Shown here: positions 19,144 through 55,249 of the stretch, in pieces
How the letters are laid out: the number at the start of each line of letters is the position of its first letter
Numbering within the stretch: the first letter of the stretch is position 1
Assembly (NCBI GenBank): GCA_040285745.1
Contig: JAUFOR010000002.1
Coordinates: forward strand, 1,240,001 to 1,304,000
Length of the DNA: 64,000 bases
Direction: 5' to 3'
Source of the DNA: Barthelona sp. PCE
Lineage: Eukaryota
Notes under the pieces: generated by a model
What the model was told of the DNA's origin: nothing
Databases searched by the model: none
Seen by the model: only the letters and a program-made list of their open reading frames with translations
Translations under genes and position numbers: made by a program

Positions 19144-20694
19144 TTAAAATTCGAAAATTTGTCCAGTCCACTTGCTCAAACCAACGTGAAGACCAGTGGA
19201 TCGTAAATCATCAATGTTACGAGAATAAGTTGTACCTGAAATTAGTTCCTTGAATTCAACTGCAGCACCACCAGCATGATCTGGTTTGTAATCTAATTTG
19301 ATTGACTCCCACTGATTATCGTTACCGGAATAGTTGACAACAACCAAAACATTCTTCTTTGTTACCTTTGATGACCAAACCCATGCAACAACATTGTTAT
19401 TGGAGGTAGGAATCCAAGTCCAATACTCTGGATCTTGATTCAGTGTAGGGTGAGCATAAACATTTGCTAAACGCTGATAAAACCCGAATAAATCACTGTC
19501 AACAGGGTTCAGATGCCTTCTAAGAAATTGTACCTTCAGGCGTGTCTTCTGACCTGTCATCTGACCAGCCCAGAAAAATCTGGGACCAGGGAGTGTGAAA
19601 GCAATCATGCCTGCTGCTTTAGAAATTTGGAAATTATGATGGAATTCCTCCCAAATAGTTGGTTCATCATGGTTACCAAGGAACTTTACCATATGCACCA
19701 TCCATCTCTTCCTCCAGCCAACATAACTGCTTACGCTTCTGACATTGAGGGATTTCAAATCATCAAGCAGATTCTCTTTATCATAAAGCGCATCAAAACC
19801 AAGGTTTTGTAAAGGTCCTTCAGAATGCCAATATTGTTCACCAATAATATAAGTACCAAACTTAGCCTTCACCTGCTTGATAGCATAGGACCAGAACTCT
19901 TGCGTAGGACGAGAATAACCCCATGCATCAAGCTGAGGCTTCCAAGAATTCTCAAAGTTATCATTCATAACAACCATAGCCATATCAACACGAAGAGCAT
20001 CACACATGCTTGCAGCAGCCAACATGTTGTTGATGCTGTAGTGCATCGTCTTGGGTTCCCAATAATTAAGCTGAGCAACATCTCTCCAATGATCACCCTT
20101 ACCACTTGAGCCAAACGCTATACCGTTCTTATAGTAGACTTCGGGGTCACAGTCCCATCCCTCCGGACAACGAATGTAACACTCAGGGCATGCTTCAACG
20201 TTGGGGCTGTCGAGAGCAGTATGATTAGGAACGTAGTCGAGCATAAGACCAACACCATGACGTTTCAATTGCTGACGAAGAACAGCAAGGCCTTCGTTGC
20301 CACCAAACTCTTCAGCAACCACGAATTCGACAATGCTAAAAGGTGAACCAATAATATCAACTTTAGGATTACAGTTATCCATCAGCTTATGACAGTCTTC
20401 AAGGATATCTGGGTTATTGCGATCGAGGTTGGGACCAATCTCGCCCTTTTGCCAGACACCAAGTAGATAAAGCAGATCAAACTTGAAATCAACGATAAAG
20501 TTAATTTCAGCATCAGGAATGTTTGCAAAAGTGATCTTTGTACCATACTTCTGGGACAATGCGTACAACCAAGGGGCTGCAGATTGCTCAAATATGGCTG
20601 CATTTTGGTACTTATAAGAATTAGAAACTACTTCCATTTGGCCCAAAGTTATGCAAAAGATCAACAAGGTCACAAAAAGAATCCGTTTGAACAT
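19144..20694 (-). CDS. Secreted GH13 alpha-amylase-family glycosidase
   Basis: Signal peptide; GSPFSI, LMLDYVPNH, and catalytic motifs LRVDMAM, IGEQYW, FLGNHDE. Confidence 0.88.
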   Translation of the reverse strand: MFKRILFVTLLIFCITLGQMEVVSNSYKYQNAAIFEQSAAPWLYALSQKYGTKITFANIPDAEINFIVDFKFDLLYLLGVWQKGEIGPNLDRNNPDILEDCHKLMDNCNPKVDIIGSPFSIVEFVVAEEFGGNEGLAVLRQQLKRHGVGLMLDYVPNHTALDSPNVEACPECYIRCPEGWDCDPEVYYKNGIAFGSSGKGDHWRDVAQLNYWEPKTMHYSINNMLAAASMCDALRVDMAMVVMNDNFENSWKPQLDAWGYSRPTQEFWSYAIKQVKAKFGTYIIGEQYWHSEGPLQNLGFDALYDKENLLDDLKSLNVRSVSSYVGWRKRWMVHMVKFLGNHDEPTIWEEFHHNFQISKAAGMIAFTLPGPRFFWAGQMTGQKTRLKVQFLRRHLNPVDSDLFGFYQRLANVYAHPTLNQDPEYWTWIPTSNNNVVAWVWSSKVTKKNVLVVVNYSGNDNQWESIKLDYKPDHAGGAAVEFKELISGTTYSRNIDDLRSTGLHVGLSKWTGQIFEF

Positions 20695-23207: not shown

Positions 23208-24158
23208 ATGCCCACAATCGTTGAACATGATGACAGCGTAAATGAACTTAATGCTGTGCCATTAAATTTTAGTATAGATAAAAGGATGACTTATAACAAC
23301 TCAATGTCTTCAAACGGTCGGTATTTGGTTATACGCCAGGATGAATTTATTGTTTTTGAATACTCAGAAGAGAATAAGTGTTATGAGAAACTTTCATCAA
23401 TCAATTGCGATAAAGACGTTGTCTGGTGTTTTATGACCAATGATGGGTATGTTGTTCTAGGTGATCACTACTCCAACAACGTGTACGACGGTATCAGTGG
23501 TAAACTAACTGTCGAAACCGATATGTATGGTTTTGAGGAAGAAGCTTATGGATTATGCGTGTCCAATACCCTTGTCAATGGCTACATATGTGCCGCTGGT
23601 ATGTGCGGAGAGCTTCTGATTATGCAGTGTTTATTAGAAGATGAAACATGTCGCCTTTCAGTAATGACAGAAGACGTTTTCTGCACTGAAAGTGGTAGTG
23701 ATGATGCACCTGAAACCGGATACAGCTCTGTACATATTGCAGAGGATAACAGACATGTTTTTGGACTTTCTGACGAAAACCAAGTATACGTGTATTGTAT
23801 CGATACTGAAGAGATGATTGTACGACAGGTGGATACATCTGTAGATGGCTGCTTTGTATCAGGATCAGTAGACACTGGATTTTGGTTGAGCAGCTATAAT
23901 TGCAAAACACTCTATTATATCGACCCTGAATTCAACTTTGGCACATGCATAGAACGTGAAAATGCTAAATTTGTCACTTACAACAAAGACTATACCCATG
24001 GAAAATACGTAATTGATGGTAATATTGTAACGATTGATTTGAATAGCTCTGAGCAAGTTTCCGTAGTCCCAATTGGTGTTGAAGGACATCGCTGTATTGA
24101 TGGCAGCATATATTATTGTGTCGACGGTGTATCTTATATTGTAAGATGTGGCTTCTAG
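23208..24158 (+). CDS. Hypothetical beta-rich (propeller-like) protein; paralog of 49976-50833
   Basis: First ATG at 23208; shares the LGD(H/D)Y...EE..G..VS...C..G.L pattern with ORF 49976. Confidence 0.65.
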   Translation: MPTIVEHDDSVNELNAVPLNFSIDKRMTYNNSMSSNGRYLVIRQDEFIVFEYSEENKCYEKLSSINCDKDVVWCFMTNDGYVVLGDHYSNNVYDGISGKLTVETDMYGFEEEAYGLCVSNTLVNGYICAAGMCGELLIMQCLLEDETCRLSVMTEDVFCTESGSDDAPETGYSSVHIAEDNRHVFGLSDENQVYVYCIDTEEMIVRQVDTSVDGCFVSGSVDTGFWLSSYNCKTLYYIDPEFNFGTCIERENAKFVTYNKDYTHGKYVIDGNIVTIDLNSSEQVSVVPIGVEGHRCIDGSIYYCVDGVSYIVRCGF

Positions 24159-24629: not shown

Positions 24630-24810
24630 CTTGAGCCAATTTAAAAAAAAAGGCGATGCAAAAGAGAAGATAAAACAGAATAAAAGTGTTTACTCGAATA
24701 AATAGCGAAGAATTAAGCTGGCCTTACACATGGTACACATTTTGAGAACCATACAAGTGTATAAAGAAGGCAATTGAAAATCAACAAATCAAGAAGAAAA
24801 TTCAATATTC

Positions 24811-24943
24811 GGTGACATACAGGCGCTAGCCTTCAGACTTTATACTTGAGGTAGTAAACAGCGGAGGGGGACGAAGCGAACCGTCATGTGTAGTAGGTGT
24901 CCGTAGGACCCGATACGGTTTTTCTTACCTTTTTCAAAAAAAA
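24811..24943 (+). repeat. Split direct repeat A1
   Basis: Identical to 30661-30794 apart from the terminal A-run (8 vs 9 A). Confidence 0.97.
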
Positions 24944-24980
24944 TCTTACTTTAGTATTGCTGCGCAAGAAATTAATTGCA

Positions 24981-25346
24981 ATGACATACTTTAGAGCGGA
25001 AAGGCAAACGAAAGAACAAGTTGCGCGCGCTATCCAGCATAGATGCGAGACGTATATTGCGCGCCTGAGTGTCGTGGTTATGGAGACCTTGTGCAAGGTC
25101 CACGAGGCGGATCCCGCCGGTAAAGCCCACTTGATTGAGGCTCTCCCGAGTTACGGGTGCGGCGAGTACGCCGACGTAATGCTCTCACCGTGCGTGTTGA
25201 GCGAGGACTTCCGGGGGTGGTTACAAGCATTGGGCGAAGATGAAAGTCAACAAGGTGTTGACAAGGTCCTTCCAGCAATTTCCTTTAGCCTAGAGAGGTT
25301 TAGGGAACTTGCAAATCTTTTGGCATGCGCCCATCCAAGTCATTAG
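24981..25346 (+). CDS. Retrotransposon ORF0, unknown function (121 aa)
   Basis: First ATG after A1 (MTYFRAERQ...); overlaps the start of ORF1 by 22 nt. Confidence 0.5.
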   Translation: MTYFRAERQTKEQVARAIQHRCETYIARLSVVVMETLCKVHEADPAGKAHLIEALPSYGCGEYADVMLSPCVLSEDFRGWLQALGEDESQQGVDKVLPAISFSLERFRELANLLACAHPSH

Positions 25347-26476
25347 CCAAGAATATTGAGGAGTCGGACATTAGAGGAGTCCGGGAGATGATTAGAGCTG
25401 CCGAAAATCACTGGAAGGCAGCTCCGGCTCTCATAACGCAGGAACTGGATGCGTTCAGGGCAGCAAAGAGGGAGGCCGACAAGATCGAGGGAATATCGGA
25501 CGTCGACAAGAAACAGCTCATCAAGACGATTACGCAACAGGTAACGCATGCGAAGGAGCAGGCGCTGAACGAGACGCGGAAGCAGACAATGGCCGCGTGG
25601 GAAGAAGAACCATCCGATGACGAGACCGACACCCAGCACACGTCTTCGAACGCAGGAATGAACACCGCCATGCAGATCGCAAGGGACGCTACCGCTTTGG
25701 TGAGCGAGACGATGAAAGAGGCCAGGCAGAGTAGGATGAGAGCCACAACCTATAACGAACCTTTCGATGCGGGCATCCAACAAGACAAACTACTCAGGAA
25801 GGTCAAACACCAATGGCAAAGAGGTCTGACATACGATAAGTTTACTGCCGCCATGGACAAGTTCCTCGAGGCGGAGATAAAGCGCAACCCCACGATCTTC
25901 GCTGGCGATATTGATCTCGGGCTCTGGAAAGCGGACGACGTCCTTCCGGACGCGTTTGTTGAGGAGGTGACGGACGACCACAAGGATAATTGGTTCCGCG
26001 AGTGGCAAATTCGTCTGAGGGACTTCAAGACGATCTACGAGGACAAGGTCGGATCCCAGTATGAACACGAGTGGCAAACCAAGCGTTTGTACTTGCTGAT
26101 GGAAGCCGCAGCGGAAATGGCGTTGGGAGACACTCTCCTACTAATCGGCAAGCTGTATGAGGAACGGCCACACCTCATCCCGACCTTCATCGCTGCCGTC
26201 TCTCCATATGGTCCCAGCCGGGCCAACAGGGCGTCAGGTATCTACAACGACGAACTCAACGTCGACCACGTGCCTGACAACTGGGTTGACGAGAATCGCG
26301 TGAAGCAATTCCTCACTAAGACGCTGGGAGTCGGTAGCTCCGGCATCATGGTCGAGTTTGACCCCACCGCCACCAAGAAGGCGTTCAACCATTCCACGAG
26401 AGCCCCCAAGCGCACGCACCGTCCTAAGACGCAAAAGAAGAAACAAGCGTTTAGCGCCAAAGAGGAGGAGAAGTGA
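25325..26476 (+). CDS. Retrotransposon ORF1, putative Gag-like protein
   Basis: 383 aa, helical with a basic C-terminus; assigned by position upstream of RT. Confidence 0.7.
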   Translation: MRPSKSLAKNIEESDIRGVREMIRAAENHWKAAPALITQELDAFRAAKREADKIEGISDVDKKQLIKTITQQVTHAKEQALNETRKQTMAAWEEEPSDDETDTQHTSSNAGMNTAMQIARDATALVSETMKEARQSRMRATTYNEPFDAGIQQDKLLRKVKHQWQRGLTYDKFTAAMDKFLEAEIKRNPTIFAGDIDLGLWKADDVLPDAFVEEVTDDHKDNWFREWQIRLRDFKTIYEDKVGSQYEHEWQTKRLYLLMEAAAEMALGDTLLLIGKLYEERPHLIPTFIAAVSPYGPSRANRASGIYNDELNVDHVPDNWVDENRVKQFLTKTLGVGSSGIMVEFDPTATKKAFNHSTRAPKRTHRPKTQKKKQAFSAKEEEK

Positions 26477-28834
26477 AATCGTTCGTCTCCCCCCGCGCGC
26501 GATAGTAAATATCTATCCGACAAGGGCGTGGGAGACGCAAATGATCCCAATGCGGTCACAGCGCTCGCGGACAGGGTCGGCGAGCTCTCCATCGAGAACG
26601 TCAAATTGAAGAAGGAGATCAAGAGCCTCAAGAAGGAAATCCCTAAGAAGCAACTCAAAGCCGCGAAGATGGAACTTCGCGCAGCTACCAAACTCGTGGA
26701 GCTCGAAGACAAAAGACTAGAAGCCATCAAAGCTCGGGAAAGGAGCACACAGAAAACAAAAGCACCTGAGGACGTTAAACGGGATAAGCCCCGTAAGGAG
26801 AAAGCACCAACAGCTACTAGCGTGCAGAAGATGATCTCCAAGGAGATCAACAAACTCAAACACGAGGTTGTAGATGAGCGGAATAACGTCCAAATCTCAA
26901 GAAATCCGAAGGAGGTAGTCGGCACAGACACCATGCAGTGGCCGGCCGCGGCGCCACCAGTAGCTCTGCTGAAGCACCTCCCACCCGACATCTTCCAGAA
27001 GGGCGGCCCAAGTCAACGAGTACTCAAAGAGGTGGTCCTAGGGGTTACCGGAACATGGGATATCCTCGGAACAGACCAGATGAAGATCAATTCAGCCGAC
27101 ACGCCCACGGAACAGTTCGTTAGGGACGCCGCGCGCGTCGCTGGCCTCAGCTGCGAAGAAATTGAGAAGACAGTCCGACTGCTCGTGACTGAGGGCGTAA
27201 CGCGCGACATGGTCGTTATCGAAGGAAAGAAGCCTCGCAGGCAGGAGCCAGTACGTCACTGGTACAAAGACGACGCTGTCGAATTGAACCTGGCCGTAAC
27301 CGCGCTCAAAAGTAAGGACCTGATCAAAGAGGTCCCCATCGAAGAGATCGAGGACGAACGAAGGGCATTCATTTCCATCGGCGCGGTCCCGAAGAATGCA
27401 GAACCGGACTCAAACAACATGTTCGCTCCGACGCAGAAGTTCGAATTTGACGTCACATCGCCGGACAACGAGCACAGGGTTATCGTCGACTGTACTAACA
27501 CGAACTCTATGTTCGCCAACATTCCAATGGAACTCATCAAAACCCACTCTCTCGAGATTGTCATGGGTGGCAATCTCATGTATTCCGTCGACGCAAAGGA
27601 TGGTTTCACGCTCATTCCACTGGACGAAGAGCTACAAAAACTGTTCTCATTTACACACGAAGGTAAGCTTTATCAATGCACTAGAATGCCGTTCGGAGTT
27701 TCATTCGGCCCGGCCATCTTCGCCCGCATGATGAACCTGGCAACGACCGCAATGCGTGCGTTGGGATTCAACATCTGGAGCTACGTCGACGACGCTTTCG
27801 GATGGGAACGATCCCTCAGCAAAGCGAGGAACTCGATGATGCTGTTCATAATCATCGCGTCGAAACTTGGCATCAAGCTAAACTACAAAAAGTCCGTCAG
27901 TCCTTCGTACAAATTGGACATCATCGGCTACACGCTGAGCACCGACGACCAGTCTGACGGCGGCCGGCTAGTCTCAACAATTAGACCGTCGGACAAGAAC
28001 ATCAGAAAGATCAGAGAGATGGCTCGCGTAATGCGAAATAGAATCGACACAGCAGAACAAATCCCTGTCAGGGACATCATGAAGCTCGATGGCAAACTTG
28101 TATCATTTGCCAACGCCTCGACGATTCTTCAGCGGGTTCACCTACAGCTACAAGCAGTACTGAAGGATCTCGACGCCCAATACGATAACGCGATATTTGA
28201 CTCGAGCAGGAACAAGGGCCTACGCCTTCTCCTACCTCTTCCACTAGCCGACGCACTCACGAGCATCGTTGAATGTAACTTTGAACCGAAGACGCTGAGC
28301 TGCGGTAGAGCTAAGGTAACATTACTGAGCGACGCCATGAAGGACCAGAAACATATAGGCATTGGAGCGAAGGCATACCCAGACGACGACCAAGAGCTCT
28401 CGTTCGAACTTCTCCACAGGATGGGAGTGAACGAGCAAGGAGCAAGAAGGATGTTGACACTTCTCGACGATCTGCCAGAACAGGAAAGAGTAGACATCGA
28501 GCAGAACACTGTCGCAACAATCGCGGAGCAGGAGATGGTACCGATCGTCGAGCTACTCAAGACTAAGGGCAGACAGCTGAGGAACACCGAAGTCGTCTGG
28601 TATTGCGACAACACGAACGTATGCGCCGCTGTCGCGAAGGGCTACAGCAAAAACAAGGTCCTCAACAAGGGGGGCCCGCATAGTGATGGAACTGTGCGAA
28701 ATGTGGGACGTGATCGTCACACCAATCTACATCAACTCAGAACAGAATTATCTTCCAGACAGCATCTCAAGAGGAGCATCGTCGGAGTCGTGGACCAACT
28801 CTACGACATTCGTGCACGAGATTCTCCCAGCTAG
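26477..28834 (+). CDS. Reverse transcriptase plus N-terminal part of RNase H
   Basis: RVIVDC, MYSVDAKDGF, YQCTRMPFGVSFGPAIF, SYVDD, LGIKLNYKKS; RNase H motifs LLSDA, AEQE, WYCDN. The frame is open from the ORF1 TGA; first ATG at 26669. Confidence 0.93.
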   Translation, partial: NRSSPPARDSKYLSDKGVGDANDPNAVTALADRVGELSIENVKLKKEIKSLKKEIPKKQLKAAKMELRAATKLVELEDKRLEAIKARERSTQKTKAPEDVKRDKPRKEKAPTATSVQKMISKEINKLKHEVVDERNNVQISRNPKEVVGTDTMQWPAAAPPVALLKHLPPDIFQKGGPSQRVLKEVVLGVTGTWDILGTDQMKINSADTPTEQFVRDAARVAGLSCEEIEKTVRLLVTEGVTRDMVVIEGKKPRRQEPVRHWYKDDAVELNLAVTALKSKDLIKEVPIEEIEDERRAFISIGAVPKNAEPDSNNMFAPTQKFEFDVTSPDNEHRVIVDCTNTNSMFANIPMELIKTHSLEIVMGGNLMYSVDAKDGFTLIPLDEELQKLFSFTHEGKLYQCTRMPFGVSFGPAIFARMMNLATTAMRALGFNIWSYVDDAFGWERSLSKARNSMMLFIIIASKLGIKLNYKKSVSPSYKLDIIGYTLSTDDQSDGGRLVSTIRPSDKNIRKIREMARVMRNRIDTAEQIPVRDIMKLDGKLVSFANASTILQRVHLQLQAVLKDLDAQYDNAIFDSSRNKGLRLLLPLPLADALTSIVECNFEPKTLSCGRAKVTLLSDAMKDQKHIGIGAKAYPDDDQELSFELLHRMGVNEQGARRMLTLLDDLPEQERVDIEQNTVATIAEQEMVPIVELLKTKGRQLRNTEVVWYCDNTNVCAAVAKGYSKNKVLNKGGPHSDGTVRNVGRDRHTNLHQLRTELSSRQHLKRSIVGVVDQLYDIRARDSPS

Positions 28835-30644
28835 GGTAATCGAGTTCAAGACATCCGTCGTCGCAAGCCTCTACGAACCTGGACACATCCCAGCACTGTA
28901 CGTCCGCGGTTTCCAGCCCACAAAAGGAAAGTCCAGGAGATCAACGAAAGCCGCACATGTGACAAGACAATGTCTCGGACAAGACCTTATCTCTCTAGGC
29001 GAGTATGACCTCAAACGGAATGCGCTCAAGGTCGACAATGTTGCGAACGGGACTGCACACTGTACAGGTAAGCTCAAAATCGTCGAAGGATTCGATGACA
29101 CAAGATACACCGTCCCTCTATCGAATATGGCGATCATCACGAGAGACAACGAAAGAATCGAGGCAACAGTTCCGACTTACTCCGCAGCCACAAGCTTAGA
29201 GATAGTCATTCTCAAAGTGTGCAGAACCGGCGCGGAAGTAGATGTGATCCTCCCCGGACCACTCCCGTCTTGCCCATTGTGGGCTACAATCACACAAAAG
29301 ACCATCCCATTAAGTGATGGATCCATAAAGATAAGAGTTACGAGAGAAAAGGTTCTCGGCGGCGAACCCGAGGACTACAAGCCCGCTGGAGCACGCACTC
29401 AGAACCCGGTACAGGTACGGGGCAAATCACTATCTCTGGCAGATCTGTTCGCCATCCCACCGTCGATGGACTACGACGAAGTGCTCGAACTCTTTCTGAA
29501 AAAAGGAGCGCACCAACCAACGAGGAACATGCTACATCGCTTCGGGAACTTCGTTCAAAAGGTGCACAGCACAGAAATAGTGGACGTCGCATGCCCAGGA
29601 AACGAAAAGAGACTTGAAGAGCTGATAATCGAGTTCAGATTCAGACTCGAACAGGAAACAAAATCGAAGAGGCGTGCGAACGGCGACACCACCGAAGTAT
29701 GGAGGTACACCTCAGATACGATTAACAGTTACATTTTCCACCTGCGTAAAGGACTGCTGGTTCTGAAAATGTTCATCACCGACAAGAAATCTCTCCTCAC
29801 GACCGAAGAACTCGAGCAACTCGTCCAGCTTAGGGCGGCAGTAATCAGATGCACACTGAGCGAGAGCTCAGAAACACAGAAATTCGCCATCAGCACGTCA
29901 GCAATCAGATTCCTGGCGGCAAGAGAGATTGAAGAGCTTAAAGCACTGGTCCAGGAAGGTACCACGAAGAAGAAGGCCCTTCAGAAGCTAAACAAAGTAA
30001 GAAGAAGAATTGCTATGATGTCATCAATGTACAACTTAGGATGCAGAGCGGCGTCTCTTGCCGCAGTCAAGACCCACCAAATTGAAGTCTCAAAATCCGG
30101 CGATGTCACGGTAACGCTGGACAAAGTGAAGAACCAACAGGGTCGACCAACCAGCTACATGATCCCCAGAAACGTATGGGAGCTGGGCACACTGCACGAC
30201 TATTTAAACGACGCTGTGCAAAGAGCAAAAGAAGGAGGTAAAGAGTTTATTTTCTCGAACGGCGGAGAAGCCCAGAGCGTCTCGAATGCATTAAACACCA
30301 TGTTCCGAGATTACAACGAGAAAATCAAGCAATCTGACCACAAGAATGCAAGCAAATTCAGAGTATTCAAAATGACAGCTCATGGCCTTAGAGCCGGCAG
30401 GGCAAAAGAGATAGCACAACATCCAGATGCGACTGTACGAGTATCAGCGCAAGGAATGGGTCTCTGGAAGGATGTGAAGGCGATGAACCTTGACTATCTC
30501 ACGAAACCACTATTGACGTTTGAGGAACGAGAGGTGTTGAGTCCGATGGAATTGGAAGGATGGGTTTTAGGCCACTTCCCGGACGAAACACCCTCTACAC
30601 GTGAAGGCGAGCCTTCCCACGTGAGCGTTCCCCGACGTCAATAA
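28683..30644 (+). CDS. RNase H C-terminus, degenerate methyltransferase-like region and tyrosine recombinase
   Basis: IYINSEQNYLPDSISR (RNase H end); YR catalytic set LGCRAAS (R), DKVKN (K), AHGLR (HxxR), MGLW (W), LDY (Y). Confidence 0.9.
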   Translation: MMELCEMWDVIVTPIYINSEQNYLPDSISRGASSESWTNSTTFVHEILPARVIEFKTSVVASLYEPGHIPALYVRGFQPTKGKSRRSTKAAHVTRQCLGQDLISLGEYDLKRNALKVDNVANGTAHCTGKLKIVEGFDDTRYTVPLSNMAIITRDNERIEATVPTYSAATSLEIVILKVCRTGAEVDVILPGPLPSCPLWATITQKTIPLSDGSIKIRVTREKVLGGEPEDYKPAGARTQNPVQVRGKSLSLADLFAIPPSMDYDEVLELFLKKGAHQPTRNMLHRFGNFVQKVHSTEIVDVACPGNEKRLEELIIEFRFRLEQETKSKRRANGDTTEVWRYTSDTINSYIFHLRKGLLVLKMFITDKKSLLTTEELEQLVQLRAAVIRCTLSESSETQKFAISTSAIRFLAAREIEELKALVQEGTTKKKALQKLNKVRRRIAMMSSMYNLGCRAASLAAVKTHQIEVSKSGDVTVTLDKVKNQQGRPTSYMIPRNVWELGTLHDYLNDAVQRAKEGGKEFIFSNGGEAQSVSNALNTMFRDYNEKIKQSDHKNASKFRVFKMTAHGLRAGRAKEIAQHPDATVRVSAQGMGLWKDVKAMNLDYLTKPLLTFEEREVLSPMELEGWVLGHFPDETPSTREGEPSHVSVPRRQ

Positions 30645-30660
30645 ACCTACTTCAGTATAA
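30562..30660 (+). repeat. Split direct repeat B1 (99 bp); contains the YR stop codon and AATAAA
   Basis: Identical to 30795-30893. Confidence 0.97.
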
Positions 30661-30794
30661 GGTGACATACAGGCGCTAGCCTTCAGACTTTATACTTGAG
30701 GTAGTAAACAGCGGAGGGGGACGAAGCGAACCGTCATGTGTAGTAGGTGTCCGTAGGACCCGATACGGTTTTTCTTACCTTTTTCAAAAAAAAA
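30661..30794 (+). repeat. Split direct repeat A2
   Basis: Copy of 24811-24943 directly abutting B1. Confidence 0.97.
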
Positions 30795-30893
30795 GGGTTT
30801 TAGGCCACTTCCCGGACGAAACACCCTCTACACGTGAAGGCGAGCCTTCCCACGTGAGCGTTCCCCGACGTCAATAAACCTACTTCAGTATAA
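30795..30893 (+). repeat. Split direct repeat B2 (99 bp), right end of the element
   Basis: Copy of 30562-30660. Confidence 0.97.
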
Positions 30894-31036
30894 ATTTACA
30901 GATTCATCTGCTACTGTATGATTCCCCTGTACCAGCCACAATGAATCATAAATCTGATGAAGGAACAGCTTCTGTAACAATTTTCACGGATTCAATCAAA
31001 AATTTTTTCAATTAAAGGTATAAGGTATATATTATA

Positions 31037-34046: not shown

Positions 34047-35744
34047 TTATTCACCACGCTTGATTTCAAAAGGCCACATAAGAATACCACCCATCATAAC
34101 GATGACGTTGTCGAAGCCATAACGACGAAGCATGGTCTGAGCCTGATAAGCACGGGCACTAACCTTACAGAAAATGATAATTGGCTTGTCACGGGGTAAC
34201 TCTTCATGACGAGTATGCAGCTGACCAAGAATAATGTGATCTGCCTGAGGAATACGCATCATTTTACGTTCACCAGGTGTACGAACATCAAGGAAAACAA
34301 AGTCTTTCTCCTCATCAAGCATCTTCTTGACTTCAAGGTTACGGACAACCTTAACACGGTTCTCTAAAATGTTCTTTGCAATGTTACAGGCTACGGCAAG
34401 GTTATCCATTGCCTTGGAGAAAGGCGGAGAGTAGCAGAAATCAGCCATGGCAACTTGGTCAATTGTGGCTTTCATCGTCATGGCCATAACAGCAACGTCA
34501 ACGTGCTTGACACCGTTGCTTGATGGACCGACAGTACTGAAACCAATAAGCATGCGGGATTCATTCTCAACAATCAACTTTGTGAATAAAGGTTTCATAC
34601 CTTTCATAAACCACACACGATCAGGTCCAGGGCTGAGAACAACAGTATAAGCAACACCTCTCCTCTCGGCCTCTTTCTCGCTAAGACCAGTACGACAACA
34701 ACAAAAATCAAAGACCTTACAGACTGCACTTCCAAGAACACCAGTCATTTTCTCATCCTGACCTGTCAAATGTGAGCCGATGACATGACCAGCACGGTTG
34801 GAAACGGAACCGAGAGGGGCATATACCTGTTCACCGGTAATGATATTGGTAACTAAAGCAACATCACCACCAGCATAGATGTTGGGATCGGAAGTCCTGC
34901 AGAACTCATCAACGAGAATACCACCTTTAGCATGACATGTGATACCGCATTCCTTAGCGATAGCATCGTTAGGACGAACACCAACAGACATGATTACAAG
35001 ACTGGCATCAATGGTGTTTTCTTCACCGAGTTTAATACGCTTAACGACACCGTCTTCTCCCTCAAATCCCTTGCAGAATGTGTTGAGATGGATTTTAACA
35101 CCCTTTGATTTAACATGACGACGAACTAATAGTTCCATATCCTTATCCATCATTGTGAGGATTTGATCCATACCTTCAACAATTGTAATGTTACGGAAAC
35201 CCATCTCGTAGAACTCAGAAGCCATCTCCATTCCGATAAGACCTGCTCCGACAACAACAACGGGGTAAGTTTCCTTCTCCTCTTCAGGAACACTCTTCAG
35301 GTGCTCAACGAGGGGATGGGCCTCTTCATATCCCTTAACAACGTGTACACCCTTGAGATCAGCACCCTCAATAGGGGGTACAAAAGGGCGTGAACCGGTT
35401 GCGATAACAAGCTTATCGTAGTCCATCTCAAAAACATTACCCTCCTTGAGATTCTTGACCTGAAGCTTCATGTTCTGTCTATCAATGGAGACAACTTCGT
35501 GCTCCATGAGCGTATCAACCATTTTGGCCTTCTTTAACCACATGGGAGTTCTCTCGACACCAACAGGGGTCATTGTCAAAAGAGGTACTCTGTCGCTTGC
35601 AATCAGGTAGGGTAAGCCACATGTGGCGGGTGTGATATAGCTTCTTTTCTCAATAATTGTGACATCAGCATTATCAACAGCACGTGCAAAACGTGAGGCA
35701 GCTCGAGGTCCACAGGCGGATGCTCCAATACAGACAACTTTCAT
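34047..35744 (-). CDS. CoA-disulfide reductase/NADH oxidase family flavoprotein with C-terminal rhodanese domain
   Basis: FAD-binding start, redox Cys in ATCGLPY, LVIATGS, GAGLIGME, IYAGGD, CYSPPFS; rhodanese FLDVRTPGE...FCKVSAR...GGILMW. Confidence 0.92.
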   Translation of the reverse strand: MKVVCIGASACGPRAASRFARAVDNADVTIIEKRSYITPATCGLPYLIASDRVPLLTMTPVGVERTPMWLKKAKMVDTLMEHEVVSIDRQNMKLQVKNLKEGNVFEMDYDKLVIATGSRPFVPPIEGADLKGVHVVKGYEEAHPLVEHLKSVPEEEKETYPVVVVGAGLIGMEMASEFYEMGFRNITIVEGMDQILTMMDKDMELLVRRHVKSKGVKIHLNTFCKGFEGEDGVVKRIKLGEENTIDASLVIMSVGVRPNDAIAKECGITCHAKGGILVDEFCRTSDPNIYAGGDVALVTNIITGEQVYAPLGSVSNRAGHVIGSHLTGQDEKMTGVLGSAVCKVFDFCCCRTGLSEKEAERRGVAYTVVLSPGPDRVWFMKGMKPLFTKLIVENESRMLIGFSTVGPSSNGVKHVDVAVMAMTMKATIDQVAMADFCYSPPFSKAMDNLAVACNIAKNILENRVKVVRNLEVKKMLDEEKDFVFLDVRTPGERKMMRIPQADHIILGQLHTRHEELPRDKPIIIFCKVSARAYQAQTMLRRYGFDNVIVMMGGILMWPFEIKRGE

Positions 35745-49975: not shown

Positions 49976-50833
49976 ATGTTCAGGGCTTGTTCAGATGACG
50001 GGGAGCTTTGTATATGTTCAAGAATCTGGGAAGACGGACGAACTGATATATCAGTTTTTGATACGAGAAGTTTAAAGCCTCTGTATAAATTTTGCATCGA
50101 CTACCATCTTGTTTATGTCATAATAAGCAAAGACAAAGAATATATGTTGTTAGGAGATGATTATGCATTTTACATTTACACAATTGAGGGAGATTTCCTC
50201 ATGTCAACTCGTCAATGTGATATCTCATTGGGAGGCGAGGAACTTGCAGGCATTAATGTTTCAAAAGACTTCAAGAGAGTACTTACATGTTGTATAACTG
50301 GTGATTTGATGTTTTTCGACATCAATCCAGATGAAAACGTTAAATCAATTGAATTGGTGAGCAAACAGTATTCAATGGGTGGATGGCGCACATTTGAGAC
50401 TGATGAAGGCTGTATCATCTTGTATGACGATGAACCTACTCGTATTAATATTCAAACAATGGAGTGTGAAGAAATTTCCATTCCATTTAGACCATATGGA
50501 AGAAACAACAGGAAATATATTATGACAGAAAAAAGAGAAGTGCGGCTTAATTCCATCGATTTTGATTGGAAGATTCTTTACACGTTTGAAGAACAAGAGC
50601 AACGTGTACAATATGCTTTAGGTTTTTCTGGATCTGATCAATACGTGATCATTCCAAAAGACAATAATCAACTGGAGGTTGTTGAAGTGTTGCAAGATGG
50701 GCAAATTCGTCTTGCATTTTCTTCTACTGAGATTATTAGAGTTTGGACTGTTAGGGTTATTAATGATAAACTGCTACAATATGATAAAAAAAATGATAAG
50801 CTATGTTGCTTGGCAGAGTTGAGAGAATTATAA
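49976..50833 (+). CDS. Hypothetical beta-rich protein; paralog of 23208-24158
   Basis: LLGDDY...GEELAGINVS...CCITGDLMFF aligns by eye with the 23208 ORF. Confidence 0.7.
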   Translation: MFRACSDDGELCICSRIWEDGRTDISVFDTRSLKPLYKFCIDYHLVYVIISKDKEYMLLGDDYAFYIYTIEGDFLMSTRQCDISLGGEELAGINVSKDFKRVLTCCITGDLMFFDINPDENVKSIELVSKQYSMGGWRTFETDEGCIILYDDEPTRINIQTMECEEISIPFRPYGRNNRKYIMTEKREVRLNSIDFDWKILYTFEEQEQRVQYALGFSGSDQYVIIPKDNNQLEVVEVLQDGQIRLAFSSTEIIRVWTVRVINDKLLQYDKKNDKLCCLAELREL

Positions 50834-50871
50834 GGCACGCTTGTGAATAACACACTATTTCGGGAGTAAAT
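50834..50871. repeat. Dispersed ~40-bp motif, copy 2
   Basis: GGCACGCTTGTGAATAACACACTATTTCGGGAGTAAAT, starting immediately after the stop codon at 50833. Confidence 0.9.
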
Positions 50872-51106
50872 GTGCCTGAGGAACAGTTCTCAGCGCAAGC
50901 GCAGCACTCGGGGGAGCTCGCCTCTCCTGTTCAAGTGTACGACTCTGAAATAAATTTCCATTCTTCCATCTACGAAATTATCGTATGAAAGTTTTTGTGG
51001 TTTTAAACGTCTGAATATCTGGAAATGTTTCATATTTCCATAGACACAGTGTTAAGATTTGGAAACACCATGCTGTTCTAAGTTTTATAACCATATTATC
51101 TTTATT

Positions 51107-53203
51107 ATGCCACGACCTAGACAGAGCAGGCATCAAATATCTGCCGAAAAGTACAGGGACTTTGTAATTGACTTTGAAAGGGACAATATTCAGATTAGCG
51201 TTCATCAAACTCCTGTTGCTCTTGAAAATATGCATGATACTTCATTTATTGGCCAACACATTCATGATTTGGGAAGCCATATGATGACCAAGTACATTTA
51301 CACGTATTGTGATGGGTATTACTTTGCTGAACTGAACCCTCCTGAATCTCAAGAAGACCCATGGACAATTACCATTGTCACAGCAAAGGACTTTGAGGAG
51401 CAGTTAAAGGAAGAAAGGGATCCTATCAAAATGCCCGTTGAAGTTGATAGAAGGCAACGTTACTTAACTGACCCTTTTAGATTTTTAAATGAATCTTACT
51501 TTGTTTATGGATATGAAGAAGATGTAGCACCCGACTATCCTTTGGTCTTTGTGCTGTCAGATGTGCAACAAAACCATCACAAGTATACGAATTACAGTTC
51601 TGTCAAGGTTCGTGATAGTAATTGTGTTACCTTCATCAGAAATCATGTTAACGAAAACAGCCCTATCTATGCAATTGTCTTCGATGGAACGTTGTTTCCC
51701 AATGCCGAAGATCACTTGAGGGAGATTATTTTCGACGATGCTTGGGATTTGCACAATTATAATGCCGTAGAGTGTTCCAATTTAAAGGTTGTTTTGTTCT
51801 GGAAGAGAGATGAGGAAGAGAAGTTGGAGAAATTACATGCAGTAGATGTTGAAGGTAATACTATGAATCTCCTTACCAAATATCCACAGTTGAGTGAGCT
51901 AGAGAATTTTGATACAAGTCGTCTTTTTATTCATATCTTTACTGATGATGAGTTCTGTTTCACGTTTACTAACCGCAATTTCGCAACAACTGTCCATATG
52001 TATGATGGAGTGATGAAGAAGACAACAGGGATGCTTGATTTGTTTAATTCTCATGTTAAGCATGACATATCTCTACTAGAACCCTGCTTCAACAACCCAG
52101 TCACGGAATACTATGGCACTGATCCATCACATAGCAATACAATGAAGTATAGAGTCATTGATTCAAAGTACGAATTGTTTCACACCGATTGTTTCAATGT
52201 TTCCAATGTTCTCCCTGGTGTTTCACGCATCGAGTGCGATAACTATTTTGTTTATTTCTTTTTGTCCGAAAAAAGAATCGTCTTTGTTCATCATAATCGC
52301 AAGCAAAAAATCGAGTCTATGATTCGTATGGACACTGATACACCACAGATCTTATACAGGGAGGGGCAGGTCGTTAAGTTGGTGCAGTATAACCGTGATA
52401 TAAGTCAGTATGATGTTCTGTTTTCACATGAAAATCTGGAGGTCCGACACATGAAAGCATGGTACGTTATTTCTGTTGTTTATGAGGACGGAGAGGCTAA
52501 AATTCATCTGAATAATACGTGTATTCTGACGCTAAATGCTGAAGAAGAGTACATGAAGAGTTGTAAGGCAGAAGAAGGATTTGTCTTCATTCACACATCA
52601 GAAAGATCCATTTTGTTTATTTTAGATGAATCTTTCAGAGTTATCAACAAGCATGGTTATGGAACTCCCATAAAGGGTAAGCCATCCATCAAGATATGCG
52701 ACGGAAAGTATTTATATCTAGCGGAAACTGACGTTAATTTCAGGGAAAATCTACTCAGCTTGAATATTACGGTCATTGATGTTGTTACAGGAATGAAATA
52801 CCACAAGGACGGATGCCTTGTAGGTGAAATGATTGATAACAAGTACGGGATGCGAGATTGGGTTTCTGATCGAACATTCGTTACTCTCCCATTGAACGGT
52901 GTTGTTGAATGCTGTTTCAATGAAGATACAAAGGAAATAAGTACTTTTTATTACGAAATATCAGCAGAACTGCCTTTAATAGGTGAAAGTTGGAGTAGAA
53001 AGTTTGGATATTTAGAAGAGTTAACATACAAACCGGAAACTAAGGGGATGCTATGGAAAAAGTGGCTCATTGATCTTCACGTTGAGAACTACGTTGAAAT
53101 ATCAGAAGACCATTACTTAGTTGCTGATTTCTTTGCTGAGGCCAGTATTGAACATATATTACTTCCGGATGTTAGTGAGACTGATATATTATCAACTATT
53201 TAA
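51107..53203 (+). CDS. Hypothetical beta-rich protein
   Basis: About 700-aa ORF from the first ATG (MPRPRQSRH). Confidence 0.75.
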   Translation: MPRPRQSRHQISAEKYRDFVIDFERDNIQISVHQTPVALENMHDTSFIGQHIHDLGSHMMTKYIYTYCDGYYFAELNPPESQEDPWTITIVTAKDFEEQLKEERDPIKMPVEVDRRQRYLTDPFRFLNESYFVYGYEEDVAPDYPLVFVLSDVQQNHHKYTNYSSVKVRDSNCVTFIRNHVNENSPIYAIVFDGTLFPNAEDHLREIIFDDAWDLHNYNAVECSNLKVVLFWKRDEEEKLEKLHAVDVEGNTMNLLTKYPQLSELENFDTSRLFIHIFTDDEFCFTFTNRNFATTVHMYDGVMKKTTGMLDLFNSHVKHDISLLEPCFNNPVTEYYGTDPSHSNTMKYRVIDSKYELFHTDCFNVSNVLPGVSRIECDNYFVYFFLSEKRIVFVHHNRKQKIESMIRMDTDTPQILYREGQVVKLVQYNRDISQYDVLFSHENLEVRHMKAWYVISVVYEDGEAKIHLNNTCILTLNAEEEYMKSCKAEEGFVFIHTSERSILFILDESFRVINKHGYGTPIKGKPSIKICDGKYLYLAETDVNFRENLLSLNITVIDVVTGMKYHKDGCLVGEMIDNKYGMRDWVSDRTFVTLPLNGVVECCFNEDTKEISTFYYEISAELPLIGESWSRKFGYLEELTYKPETKGMLWKKWLIDLHVENYVEISEDHYLVADFFAEASIEHILLPDVSETDILSTI

Positions 53204-53206
53204 GCA

Positions 53207-55249
53207 CTAATCAAACGAATATAAATTGTATTCATTATATTTTCTTGGAAGAGGAAGCTTCAGCTCAAAATATTCAGCTCTAGTTAATAAATCTGTTAAT
53301 GGAAAATCACTTTTTGAAATAGTAAACTCCAAAGGATCATCAGTATCAAGTTCTATTGTTGTCTCAACAACCGTACGATTCTCTATCTTGATGGAGTATA
53401 TCACCCCATCATGAATACAAGTTCTGCCCAATGGTAAATCAAAAGTAACAACCTCATTCGGGATGGGACACTGTTTATCCCAATAATAAATTCCATTTTC
53501 AAGTACAAAATGCTGTTCTGTCCATCCAATGATAGCACACTTATTCTTTTGCTTCGTATATGCTACGTTACCCGTTTCCAAATCGATTAACGCTAACTTT
53601 GTTTTGTTAATGTAACTAGCCAATAGTGTGGGATTTTCTGGTGATATTCTTGCCATGTGAGGTGTGAAAAGTAAATTTGTGTGATAAACGCTGGAAATTC
53701 CCTGTTCTAGATCAAAAACATGAACATCATGCTTGAACTCAAGCACAACATAGGGTAATGCAATCATAAGCACATTAAATGAAGAACCAAAGGCATAGGT
53801 TTGTAGCAATGTGTCCCCAGTGCTCGACACCAACCTAAAATACCTTCGATCCACGTCACCGTAATGAATTTGCAGATCAATGTGTTTTTCGTGCTGTAAT
53901 ATATCATCTGTGTACTTCTGGATCGCATATAACATGGCCCCGCTGCGCTCATCTTTGAAAACGTTCATGTAAAGATTGGGATCATACTCAATATAAAAGC
54001 TATCGACAGAACGCTTTAAACTGTCTACCAAATGACAACTAATAACCCAACACCGCGCATATAACTTGTGTAGTGTCTCATGTATAAACGGAGATGATGA
54101 AGTAGTTATACAATTTGCATTCATACTTAGTTTCATATTTAGGTATGTTAACGTTGGATCTTCAGTGAGTGTAATGTGCACAGCTGAGATTTCACTGCCA
54201 AATAAAACCAGTCTCTGATCTCCATCCATGCTGAGTTTTGCGTTAGAAAACTCCCCAGCCAGTATACAGTTGGACACATCCTTGAGCATATGAAAATCTA
54301 GTATTCCTGTATGTTCTTGTAGATTTCCTCTGGTGGAACGGGTAAAGAGGGACCTTACCAGTCCAAAGCGATTAAAATCACCGAAGAACTGATAACATTC
54401 GCCATATCGCAATGAATTCGAAATAGTACGAATGCTATCGTTAGTAGCATGATATATATGCAGTTTTCCGTGCTCTTCCGTACAAAATATTCCGTTTAAA
54501 GGCGAATAACTAAAAATAAACCCAAATTTCACAAAACCATCCATGCGAAAAACAAAAGATTCAACATCTATATCGCAATCATATATCTCACACGTTTCAT
54601 AAGGCATGGGTATGATTCCCATTGCGTTTCTATTAACAATTGGAAATATTCTACAGCTCGGAAATGTACGAACATGCTCAAAAGTCTTGGATTCAATATC
54701 AAATCTATGAATCAAGGTGTCTTGGTTCTGTTGGCTGTCAAATGCTATTAAACAACCTGAAACACACCTAAAACAACGTGAGTAAATCGCAGTTTCAATT
54801 ATCTCGTTGCTAATAAGATCGCAACATAGCAGTGGTGTATCATTTCTTCTCACAATTATGAGAGCAATGTCAGGTGTCATGGCTGCAACTGTGAGTCTTG
54901 TTGGTTGAAAATTGGATATAGTGAAACTACGATGAATGGTCTCTGTAACATTACATGATTCATCGATAAGGAAAAATACAAATCTGAACTCATCAGCTTT
55001 GATGCGCTGAAGAAAGTAAAAATGATCAGAAAGTTGACAACGTTGAAACAAACGATTCTTACCTGAGTTACACACATCAACATGATGGTCCAGTCTACAC
55101 AGAGCAATTTCTCTATCGCTGTCTAAACTTGGAATGCCTTCAAAATCCAAAAAGTTGGTTGTGCCATCCTCAACAGCAAAAACGCTATTTCCGTAAGAAA
55201 GAATCCCACCTATGTGATCAACTATGTGATTTTCGATTCTTCTAGGCAT
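53207..55249 (-). CDS. Hypothetical beta-rich protein
   Basis: About 680-aa ORF from the first ATG (MPRRIENH), convergent with the previous gene. Confidence 0.75.
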   Translation of the reverse strand: MPRRIENHIVDHIGGILSYGNSVFAVEDGTTNFLDFEGIPSLDSDREIALCRLDHHVDVCNSGKNRLFQRCQLSDHFYFLQRIKADEFRFVFFLIDESCNVTETIHRSFTISNFQPTRLTVAAMTPDIALIIVRRNDTPLLCCDLISNEIIETAIYSRCFRCVSGCLIAFDSQQNQDTLIHRFDIESKTFEHVRTFPSCRIFPIVNRNAMGIIPMPYETCEIYDCDIDVESFVFRMDGFVKFGFIFSYSPLNGIFCTEEHGKLHIYHATNDSIRTISNSLRYGECYQFFGDFNRFGLVRSLFTRSTRGNLQEHTGILDFHMLKDVSNCILAGEFSNAKLSMDGDQRLVLFGSEISAVHITLTEDPTLTYLNMKLSMNANCITTSSSPFIHETLHKLYARCWVISCHLVDSLKRSVDSFYIEYDPNLYMNVFKDERSGAMLYAIQKYTDDILQHEKHIDLQIHYGDVDRRYFRLVSSTGDTLLQTYAFGSSFNVLMIALPYVVLEFKHDVHVFDLEQGISSVYHTNLLFTPHMARISPENPTLLASYINKTKLALIDLETGNVAYTKQKNKCAIIGWTEQHFVLENGIYYWDKQCPIPNEVVTFDLPLGRTCIHDGVIYSIKIENRTVVETTIELDTDDPLEFTISKSDFPLTDLLTRAEYFELKLPLPRKYNEYNLYSFD

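Follow-up and report, generated by a model that had tools for sequence, protein, structure and literature searches.

The stretch of DNA analysed here (the window) comprises 64,000 nucleotides (nt) of the metamonad Barthelona sp. PCE and is, outside one element, compact, AT-rich eukaryotic DNA with a GC content of 40%. The element, at 24811-30893, is a tyrosine recombinase (YR) retrotransposon with split direct repeats, 6.1 kb long and with a GC content of 52%, and it contains an in-frame TGA (26474-26476) at the end of a gag-like open reading frame (ORF). An earlier note on this DNA had proposed that programmed readthrough of this stop codon, stimulated by a hairpin, sets the Gag:Pol ratio. 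The insertion site is intergenic, between two minus-strand ORFs, and no target-site duplication was found at the element ends (24796-24810 compared with 30894-30908). The following features were located:

24811..24943 (+): A1, the 133-bp split direct repeat at the 5' end (133/133 identical to A2)
24981..26476 (+): ORF1, Gag-like by position only, with a basic C-terminus, ending at the TGA (498 amino acids in the other four copies)
25318..25321 (+): T-run lacking one base that the other copies have; a frameshift private to this copy or an error of the assembly (4/4 other gene models continuous)
26473..26505 (+): 33-nt GT..AG segment, intron of the NCBI gene models, judged to be a gene-finder bridge (GC content 64%, free of A from +7 to -5)
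26474..26476 (+): in-frame UGA in the context AAG-UGA-AAU (bypassed by the same gap in 5/5 models)
26477..26483 (+): 7-nt spacer, able to pair with 26540-45 in naked RNA (fold prediction)
26484..26537 (+): predicted hairpin with an outer 8-bp stem (26484-91/26530-37), three further pairs and an inner stem (26501-05/26513-17)
26477..26668 (+): open stretch of 64 codons ahead of the first ATG, coding-like 3' of the hairpin, with a coiled-coil-like stretch
27542..27937 (+): reverse transcriptase (RT) core with YVDD (PF00078, E=1.2e-14)
28313..28775 (+): DIRS-type RNase H (profile match), 5' limit approximate, C-terminal part crossing the G-run lesion
28669..28674 (+): G-run with one base that the other copies lack; a frameshift private to this copy or an error of the assembly (4/4 other models continuous)
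28776..29462 (+): 229-amino-acid domain of unknown function at the position of the DIRS methyltransferase (also in a second Barthelona family)
29964..30419 (+): catalytic region of the tyrosine recombinase (PF00589, E=8.6e-4); the ORF ends with TAA at 30642-44
30562..30893 (+): 3' repeats B1 (30562-30660), A2 (30661-30794) and B2 (30795-30893), with B1 and B2 identical at 99/99 positions

In the window copy ORF1 is read in two parts (24981-25346 and 25304-26476), and its true start is the ATG at 24981, a point absent from the earlier note. No Pfam, Atlas or homologue match was obtained for ORF1, and a zinc-finger match in Pfam was likewise not found; its position and size fit Gag, and by analogy ORF1 may be regarded as such. 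The PF00589 match of the recombinase is weak (19.6 bits, below the cut-off of 27.1). We take the R and HxxR (HGLR) motifs and a later Y in this region to be those of the YR consensus. No match to rve, and thus no DDE integrase, was detected, and the final 27 codons of the ORF lie within repeat B1.

The 229-amino-acid domain shares about 33% identity with the second Barthelona family, measured over the end of the RNase H and the domain together. A methyltransferase profile scored -1.8 bits against it, below shuffled sequences, and hhalign gave a probability of 0.5%; despite this, the best-scoring stretch falls on the C-terminal motif of the methyltransferases. The domain is possibly a decayed methyltransferase, a proposal that has no statistical support. 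A single-sequence AlphaFold model was unusable (predicted local distance difference test score of 32), and Atlas returned unnamed matches only, scoring at most 0.76.

The UGA junction, its predicted hairpin and the linker

The junction itself is as the earlier note had described it. ORF1 and the RT ORF lie in one frame (25304-26476 and 26477-28834) and are parted only by the TGA, with no in-frame ATG until 26669, upstream of which two out-of-frame ATGs occur (26541 and 26550). The spacer and both stems were found again, and both stems are part of the minimum-energy fold. TGA had been counted as the stop of two of 30 host ORFs; our recount outside the element gave 3/33 for ATG-initiated ORFs of at least 100 amino acids and 1/26 for those of at least 200, which makes TGA the rarest host stop. 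Reassignment of UGA in the host was considered and is unlikely, since TGA terminates host ORFs. An Rfam search returned 0 matches at E-values up to 1, and thus nothing resembling a selenocysteine insertion sequence. The junction shows the traits of a readthrough site, namely one in-frame stop with a long open frame behind it and a predicted stem 7-12 nt after the stop, the distance at which published readthrough stems start (PMC3159437; for spacers also PMC13517186).

The 72 nt from the stop onwards (26474-26545) fold at -28.7 kcal/mol (z-score -4.57), and 0 of 200 shuffles were as good. Inner pairs of the outer stem have a probability of 0.98-0.99 when folding starts at 26484 and of about 0.76 when upstream sequence is included. 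In the naked fold, part of the spacer (26478-83) is paired as well, with 26540-45, which the earlier note did not contain. Perfect 8-bp stems starting 6-10 nt downstream were found for 20 of 5800 element positions, representing four loci with the TGA among them, in what is a post hoc test. Moreover, the 70 nt 3' of the TGA fold at -29.1 kcal/mol, compared with -1.2 to -21.4 kcal/mol after 26 host stops, a stop-by-stop comparison that is confounded by GC content. By analogy, and judging from its prediction and placement, the hairpin may stimulate readthrough.

Elsewhere in the element, the strongest local fold is at 28628-28723, at the end of the RNase H and covering the G-run lesion, where three short hairpins are predicted (-41.4 kcal/mol, z-score -5.2). 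Further local hairpins are predicted at 26780-26900 in a lysine-rich linker (z-score -3.2).

The segment between the TGA and ATG 26669 was scored with a codon-position model for which the remainder of the element served as the training set. Its 64 codons scored 12.4 in frame 0, against 10.1 +/- 3.1 for coding windows (n=47) and -24 +/- 7 for the other frames. This score was reached by 0 of 2000 shuffles, 6% of which were free of stops. The signal stems from the 120 nt 3' of the hairpin, which score 13.2, and the 72 hairpin bases score -1.0. A bZIP_1 match covers residues 27-59 of the linker (E=0.001, below the Pfam cut-off).

A low score over the hairpin beside a coding linker fits an RNA constraint imposed on the codons, and it also fits a non-AUG start near GTG 26528. 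The second possibility belongs to an explanation in which Pol and YR are translated apart from Gag, either through reinitiation or from a subgenomic RNA transcribed from an internal promoter; the start would be a non-AUG codon, such as GTG 26528, or else ATG 26669, and the common frame would be left over from an ancient fusion of gag and pol. The in-frame GTG 26528 stands where the coding signal starts, but it is buried in the 3' arm of the hairpin; a start at 26669 would leave 40 coding-like codons unexplained and has the two out-of-frame ATGs ahead of it. The gag-pol junction of the retrotransposon Tca2 is described as holding a minor promoter (PMC2194720), which lends some weight to separate initiation, whereas the stem 7 nt after the stop would have no explanation under it. 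We consider this route unlikely.

Gene models of five copies and the possible routes past the stop

A search of 1.84 billion protein representatives with the element gave one match at 99% identity, two at 37% and the next at E=6e-19. The 99% match is a cluster of five NCBI predicted proteins of Barthelona sp. PCE itself. P0152 has no substitution relative to the window and is most likely this very copy, P0153 and P0154 differ by one residue, and P0001 and P0151 by 10 each. All five gene models link gag to pol through the identical excision of the 33-nt GT..AG segment at 26473-26505, by which the TGA is dropped. The model P0152 bridges in addition the T-run with a predicted intron of 38 nt and the G-run with one of 40 nt; the other four models are continuous across both sites, with one base different from the window. 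Residues 1191-1270 of P0151 match a profile built from the C-termini of DIRS RNase H without interruption (E=4e-11, among three sequences), so that the break at the G-run is a lesion rather than a designed ORF overlap. P0151 contains no other gap across its 1876 residues. Two gaps are private to other models, are not derivable from window DNA and adjoin homopolymer runs, which suggests that they likewise bridge private indels; an 81-nt gap in P0153 is derivable from window DNA and may be unneeded. The predictor thus appears to invent introns mostly at sites where a copy has a break, and the only break common to all copies would be the TGA.

The stop is very probably common to the copies of this family, judging from the gene models. 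The earlier note had left it to other copies to decide whether a sense codon stands at this position. The models supply no such refutation, as the bypass is common to all five annotated copies, but the site is seen through gene models only. In each of the four other copies the recombinase is read in the frame of pol, which the earlier note did not state. The intact layout would accordingly comprise ATG 24981, 498 codons, the UGA, 1388 codons encoding RT, RNase H, the 229-amino-acid domain and YR, and TAA 30642-44; both this layout and the common stop are read from protein gene models. With the whole element in one frame and a single stop, the feature seems more striking than had been proposed.

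The same models bear on the possibility that the TGA is a nonsense mutation, either confined to this copy or fixed in a sub-family that is not autonomous and is mobilized in trans, in which case the functional element would have one open frame. A requirement for the same bypass in 5/5 models, including the otherwise unbroken P0151, argues against it, as does the rarity (20/5800) with which a random mutation would strike the basic end of gag at a site followed, after 7 nt, by a perfect stem. On the other hand, the window copy has two further private breaks, and the copies (0-10 substitutions) are too alike to reveal selection. The RT of DIRS-1 can act in trans (PMC7192593) and single-ORF TATE copies are described from Bodo saltans (PMC6681497), both of which would suit such a mutation. 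It appears to us quite unlikely.

Taken at face value, the gene models would mean that inefficient splicing of 26473-26505 removes the stop in frame, with the hairpin over the 3' splice site as the limiting factor. Indeed, the acceptor AG lies within the inner stem and all five NCBI models use exactly this segment; they were predicted by AUGUSTUS from a nanopore assembly for which Illumina reads served as correction, and the pipeline is described as using RNA-seq for training together with PASA checks (PMC11316075). The searchable supplementary files of the same paper hold no intron data (PMC11316075). The segment has 64% GC against 40% in the host, and its adenosines occur only at +4 to +6, -4 and -2, so that there is no branch-point adenosine; the 40 nt upstream of each of the 18 AGs that lie from the TGA to ATG 26669 contain no yUnAy motif. 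The branch-point rule applied here is a general one, and the intron consensus of Barthelona may differ from it. The same predictor made up the 38- and 40-nt introns at private 1-nt lesions, and spliced genomic RNA would yield intronless copies. Furthermore, 14 of the 24 host ORFs scanned had Pfam matches, and several conserved genes (an RPT-type AAA ATPase, dynamin, a COPB2-like protein, katanin p80 and an Arf-like protein) carry near-full-length domains in one ORF, which suggests that the host is intron-poor. Given the high GC content and the lack of a branch adenosine or motif, the segment is implausible as a spliceosomal intron, and we regard splicing as the source of Pol as very unlikely. 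The earlier note had named a spliced or an internally initiated pol mRNA as a finding that would overturn its proposal: the sole predicted splice is implausible, whereas the internal promoter or non-AUG route, with Tca2 of Candida as its precedent, keeps some probability.

We propose that the element is a young YR retrotransposon with split direct repeats, intact copies of which would consist of one frame with one UGA break at the end of gag. Most ribosomes would terminate at the UGA and release Gag of 498 amino acids, and a minority would insert an amino acid there, aided by the stem 7 nt downstream, to give a Gag-RT-RNaseH-X-YR polyprotein of about 1887 amino acids. A single leaky stop would in this way set the ratio of the structural protein to both enzymes. 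Programmed readthrough is preferred because it accounts jointly for the common frame, the coding linker and the position of the stem, and we consider it the best explanation and a reasonably probable one; readthrough itself is suggested by analogy with known systems. The shared break in 5/5 models, the implausible splice and the coding-like segment before the ATG lend the original proposal partial support, in which readthrough and the stimulatory role of the hairpin are the putative parts.

Several observations weigh against this explanation. The UGA-AAU context fits none of the leaky contexts of types I-III (UAG-CAA-UYA, UGA-CUA/CGG, UAG-G), and the hairpin bases, as seen above, do not score as coding. 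In a wider window of 121 nt (26460-26580), which includes upstream sequence, the z-score of the fold is only -0.55; in a scan of 502 sliding windows of the element the hairpin ranks third, behind two windows at 28628-28723 with a stronger fold, and the 70 nt after the final TAA of the element fold at -24.5 kcal/mol, against -29.1 kcal/mol at the TGA. A spurious predicted intron, too, would be common to copies that are nearly identical, and any T-initial codon at the site would keep the GT donor. The support for a common stop consists of gene models, no DNA or RNA of another copy having been found to cover the junction. No protease was detected in the element proteins, so that readthrough would yield a fusion protein of very large size that is not processed. 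Finally, the junction of Tca2 gave no readthrough in Saccharomyces cerevisiae reporters and contains the minor promoter mentioned above (PMC2194720).

Further copies and relatives were sought in several ways. A search for sequencing runs gave three DNA runs and no RNA run. Among contig pieces from the DNA runs 21 match (11, 10 and 0), and none of the 16 listed covers the TGA, an uninformative result; the binned read depth near the junction is explained by a contig piece that ends at 26374. In related-locus scans, 0/99 and 0/166 pattern matches in metagenomes, 0/95 and 0/50 in viral contigs, and 0/3 and 0/1 with two distant DIRS queries were confirmed as relatives, and an alignment of 18 DIRS sequences was too diverged for locus scanning. 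Three word-index protein searches found no relatives, a weak test that missed known Barthelona proteins too. The genome does contain a second family of YR retrotransposons, a cluster of five proteins and a singleton (P0156, P0002, P0155, P0157, P0158, P0003), with 37% identity in the RT and the same domain order, RT, RNase H, the 229-amino-acid domain and YR being joined in one model, P0156. Splicing of a continuous P0156 could not produce P0002, but three of five controls failed in this test as well, probably owing to private indels. Similarity between the linkers of the two families was not detectable (E=0.29). Proteins with RT plus YR such as P0017 were rejected as parallels, as they leave the RNase H frame.

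Outside the element, the window encodes on the minus strand a pyridine nucleotide-disulphide oxidoreductase of bacterial type fused to a rhodanese domain (34047-35744), which may have been acquired by lateral transfer, and an alpha-amylase-family protein with a hydrophobic N-terminus (19144-20694). ORFs of 285-698 amino acids without an obvious family are present at 49976-55249 and 23208-24158; the latter, the only ORF of this set that was scanned, had no Pfam match.

Comparison with known retrotransposons and readthrough systems

RT and RNase H (PF00078 and the RNase H profile) together with a tyrosine recombinase and no DDE integrase place the element in the order DIRS. Its repeats follow the Ngaro-like pattern A1..B1A2B2, with the internal repeats at the 3' side, after the YR domain. 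A DIRS1-like arrangement was not found, as the 25 longest of 34 repeat pairs listed include no terminal inverted repeat and the ends carry direct repeats only, and a methyltransferase after the RNase H, as in PAT-like elements, was not detected. The element is thus of Ngaro type in layout, with split direct repeats, YR in last position and no detectable methyltransferase. We do not assign it to Ngaro, because the phylogeny of RT and YR lacks reference sequences and the 229-amino-acid domain occupies the methyltransferase position of PAT and DIRS1. A quick tree of 75 of 148 RT hits placed the Barthelona RT on a long branch, in a sample without labelled Ngaro, PAT or VIPER references and with unreliable methyltransferase ('MT') labels, the seed having included RNase H. 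Distant RT matches, among 33 proteins scanned, include proteins with RT and a Dam domain and Gypsy-like polyproteins.

Split direct repeats are described for Ngaro, PAT and VIPER elements (PMC8547959; PMC4157794). Among the closest known systems are Ngaro1-4 of Cafeteria burkhardae, which are likewise GC-rich inserts of about 6 kb with the structure A1-[ORFs]-B1A2B2, the order gag, RT/RNase H and YR, and no detectable methyltransferase (PMC8547959). Ngaro is described with three ORFs, whereas in the Barthelona element RT, RNase H and YR form one ORF in four copies and gag stands in the same frame behind a UGA; the 229-amino-acid domain after the RNase H is a further difference. PAT-like elements share the split direct repeats and an extra domain at the methyltransferase position (PMC4157794), but the Barthelona element has no detected methyltransferase and no zinc-finger Pfam match in ORF1. 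TATE and VIPER of kinetoplastids also have split direct repeats, and two TATE copies of Bodo saltans are single-ORF; their RT/RNase H is, however, treated as the third ORF and does not precede YR, and the parts of that paper covered mention no in-frame stop or recoding (PMC6681497).

DIRS-order elements are generally described with three, often overlapping ORFs (PMC3266345; bioRxiv 2021.08.05.455354; PMC5633606), and the portions of the literature searched do not state how the downstream ORFs are translated. Readthrough in YR retrotransposons of the order DIRS was not found in this literature, although the reviews of Poulter and Goodwin and Repbase entries could mention it, and neither DIRS nor Ngaro is mentioned in the first 300,000 of the 449,034 characters of a review on recoding. 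The Barthelona element offers an unusually clean test, combining a single frame, stop and hairpin with several young copies in a host that is in culture. If the proposal is correct, Gag:Pol control in the style of gammaretroviruses extends to YR retrotransposons and to a metamonad, the divergent translation system of a metamonad yields a readthrough signal, and leaky stops after gag may have been overlooked as a general route to the expression of downstream genes in YR elements. It also follows that a short predicted intron of a gene finder can hide such a stop. That a lineage of YR retrotransposons has collapsed to one frame, with hairpin-stimulated UGA readthrough as the sole switch between Gag and a protease-less polyprotein, has in our estimate an even chance of being correct.

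Tca2 of Candida albicans, the nearest parallel among retrotransposons, is similar in having gag, UGA and pol in frame with a predicted structure after a short spacer; it is a long terminal repeat element, unlike the YR element of Barthelona (PMC2194720). Despite the negative reporter result, the pol of Tca2 is made from gag-pol RNA, by a bypass mechanism that was left open (PMC2194720). Murine leukaemia virus (MuLV), alphaviruses, furoviruses and Drosophila kelch all resemble the Barthelona junction in having an in-frame stop before a polymerase or a C-terminal extension and a stem 7-12 nt downstream (PMC3159437). These cases rest on conservation or assays, which the Barthelona case does not, and a simple bulged hairpin stands here in the place of the MuLV pseudoknot (PMC3159437). 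Kelch is a published exception to the standard leaky contexts UAG-CAA-UYA, UGA-CUA/CGG and UAG-G, with UGA-A and a spacer of 8 nt, and it is this UGA-A that the Barthelona element shares (PMC3159437).

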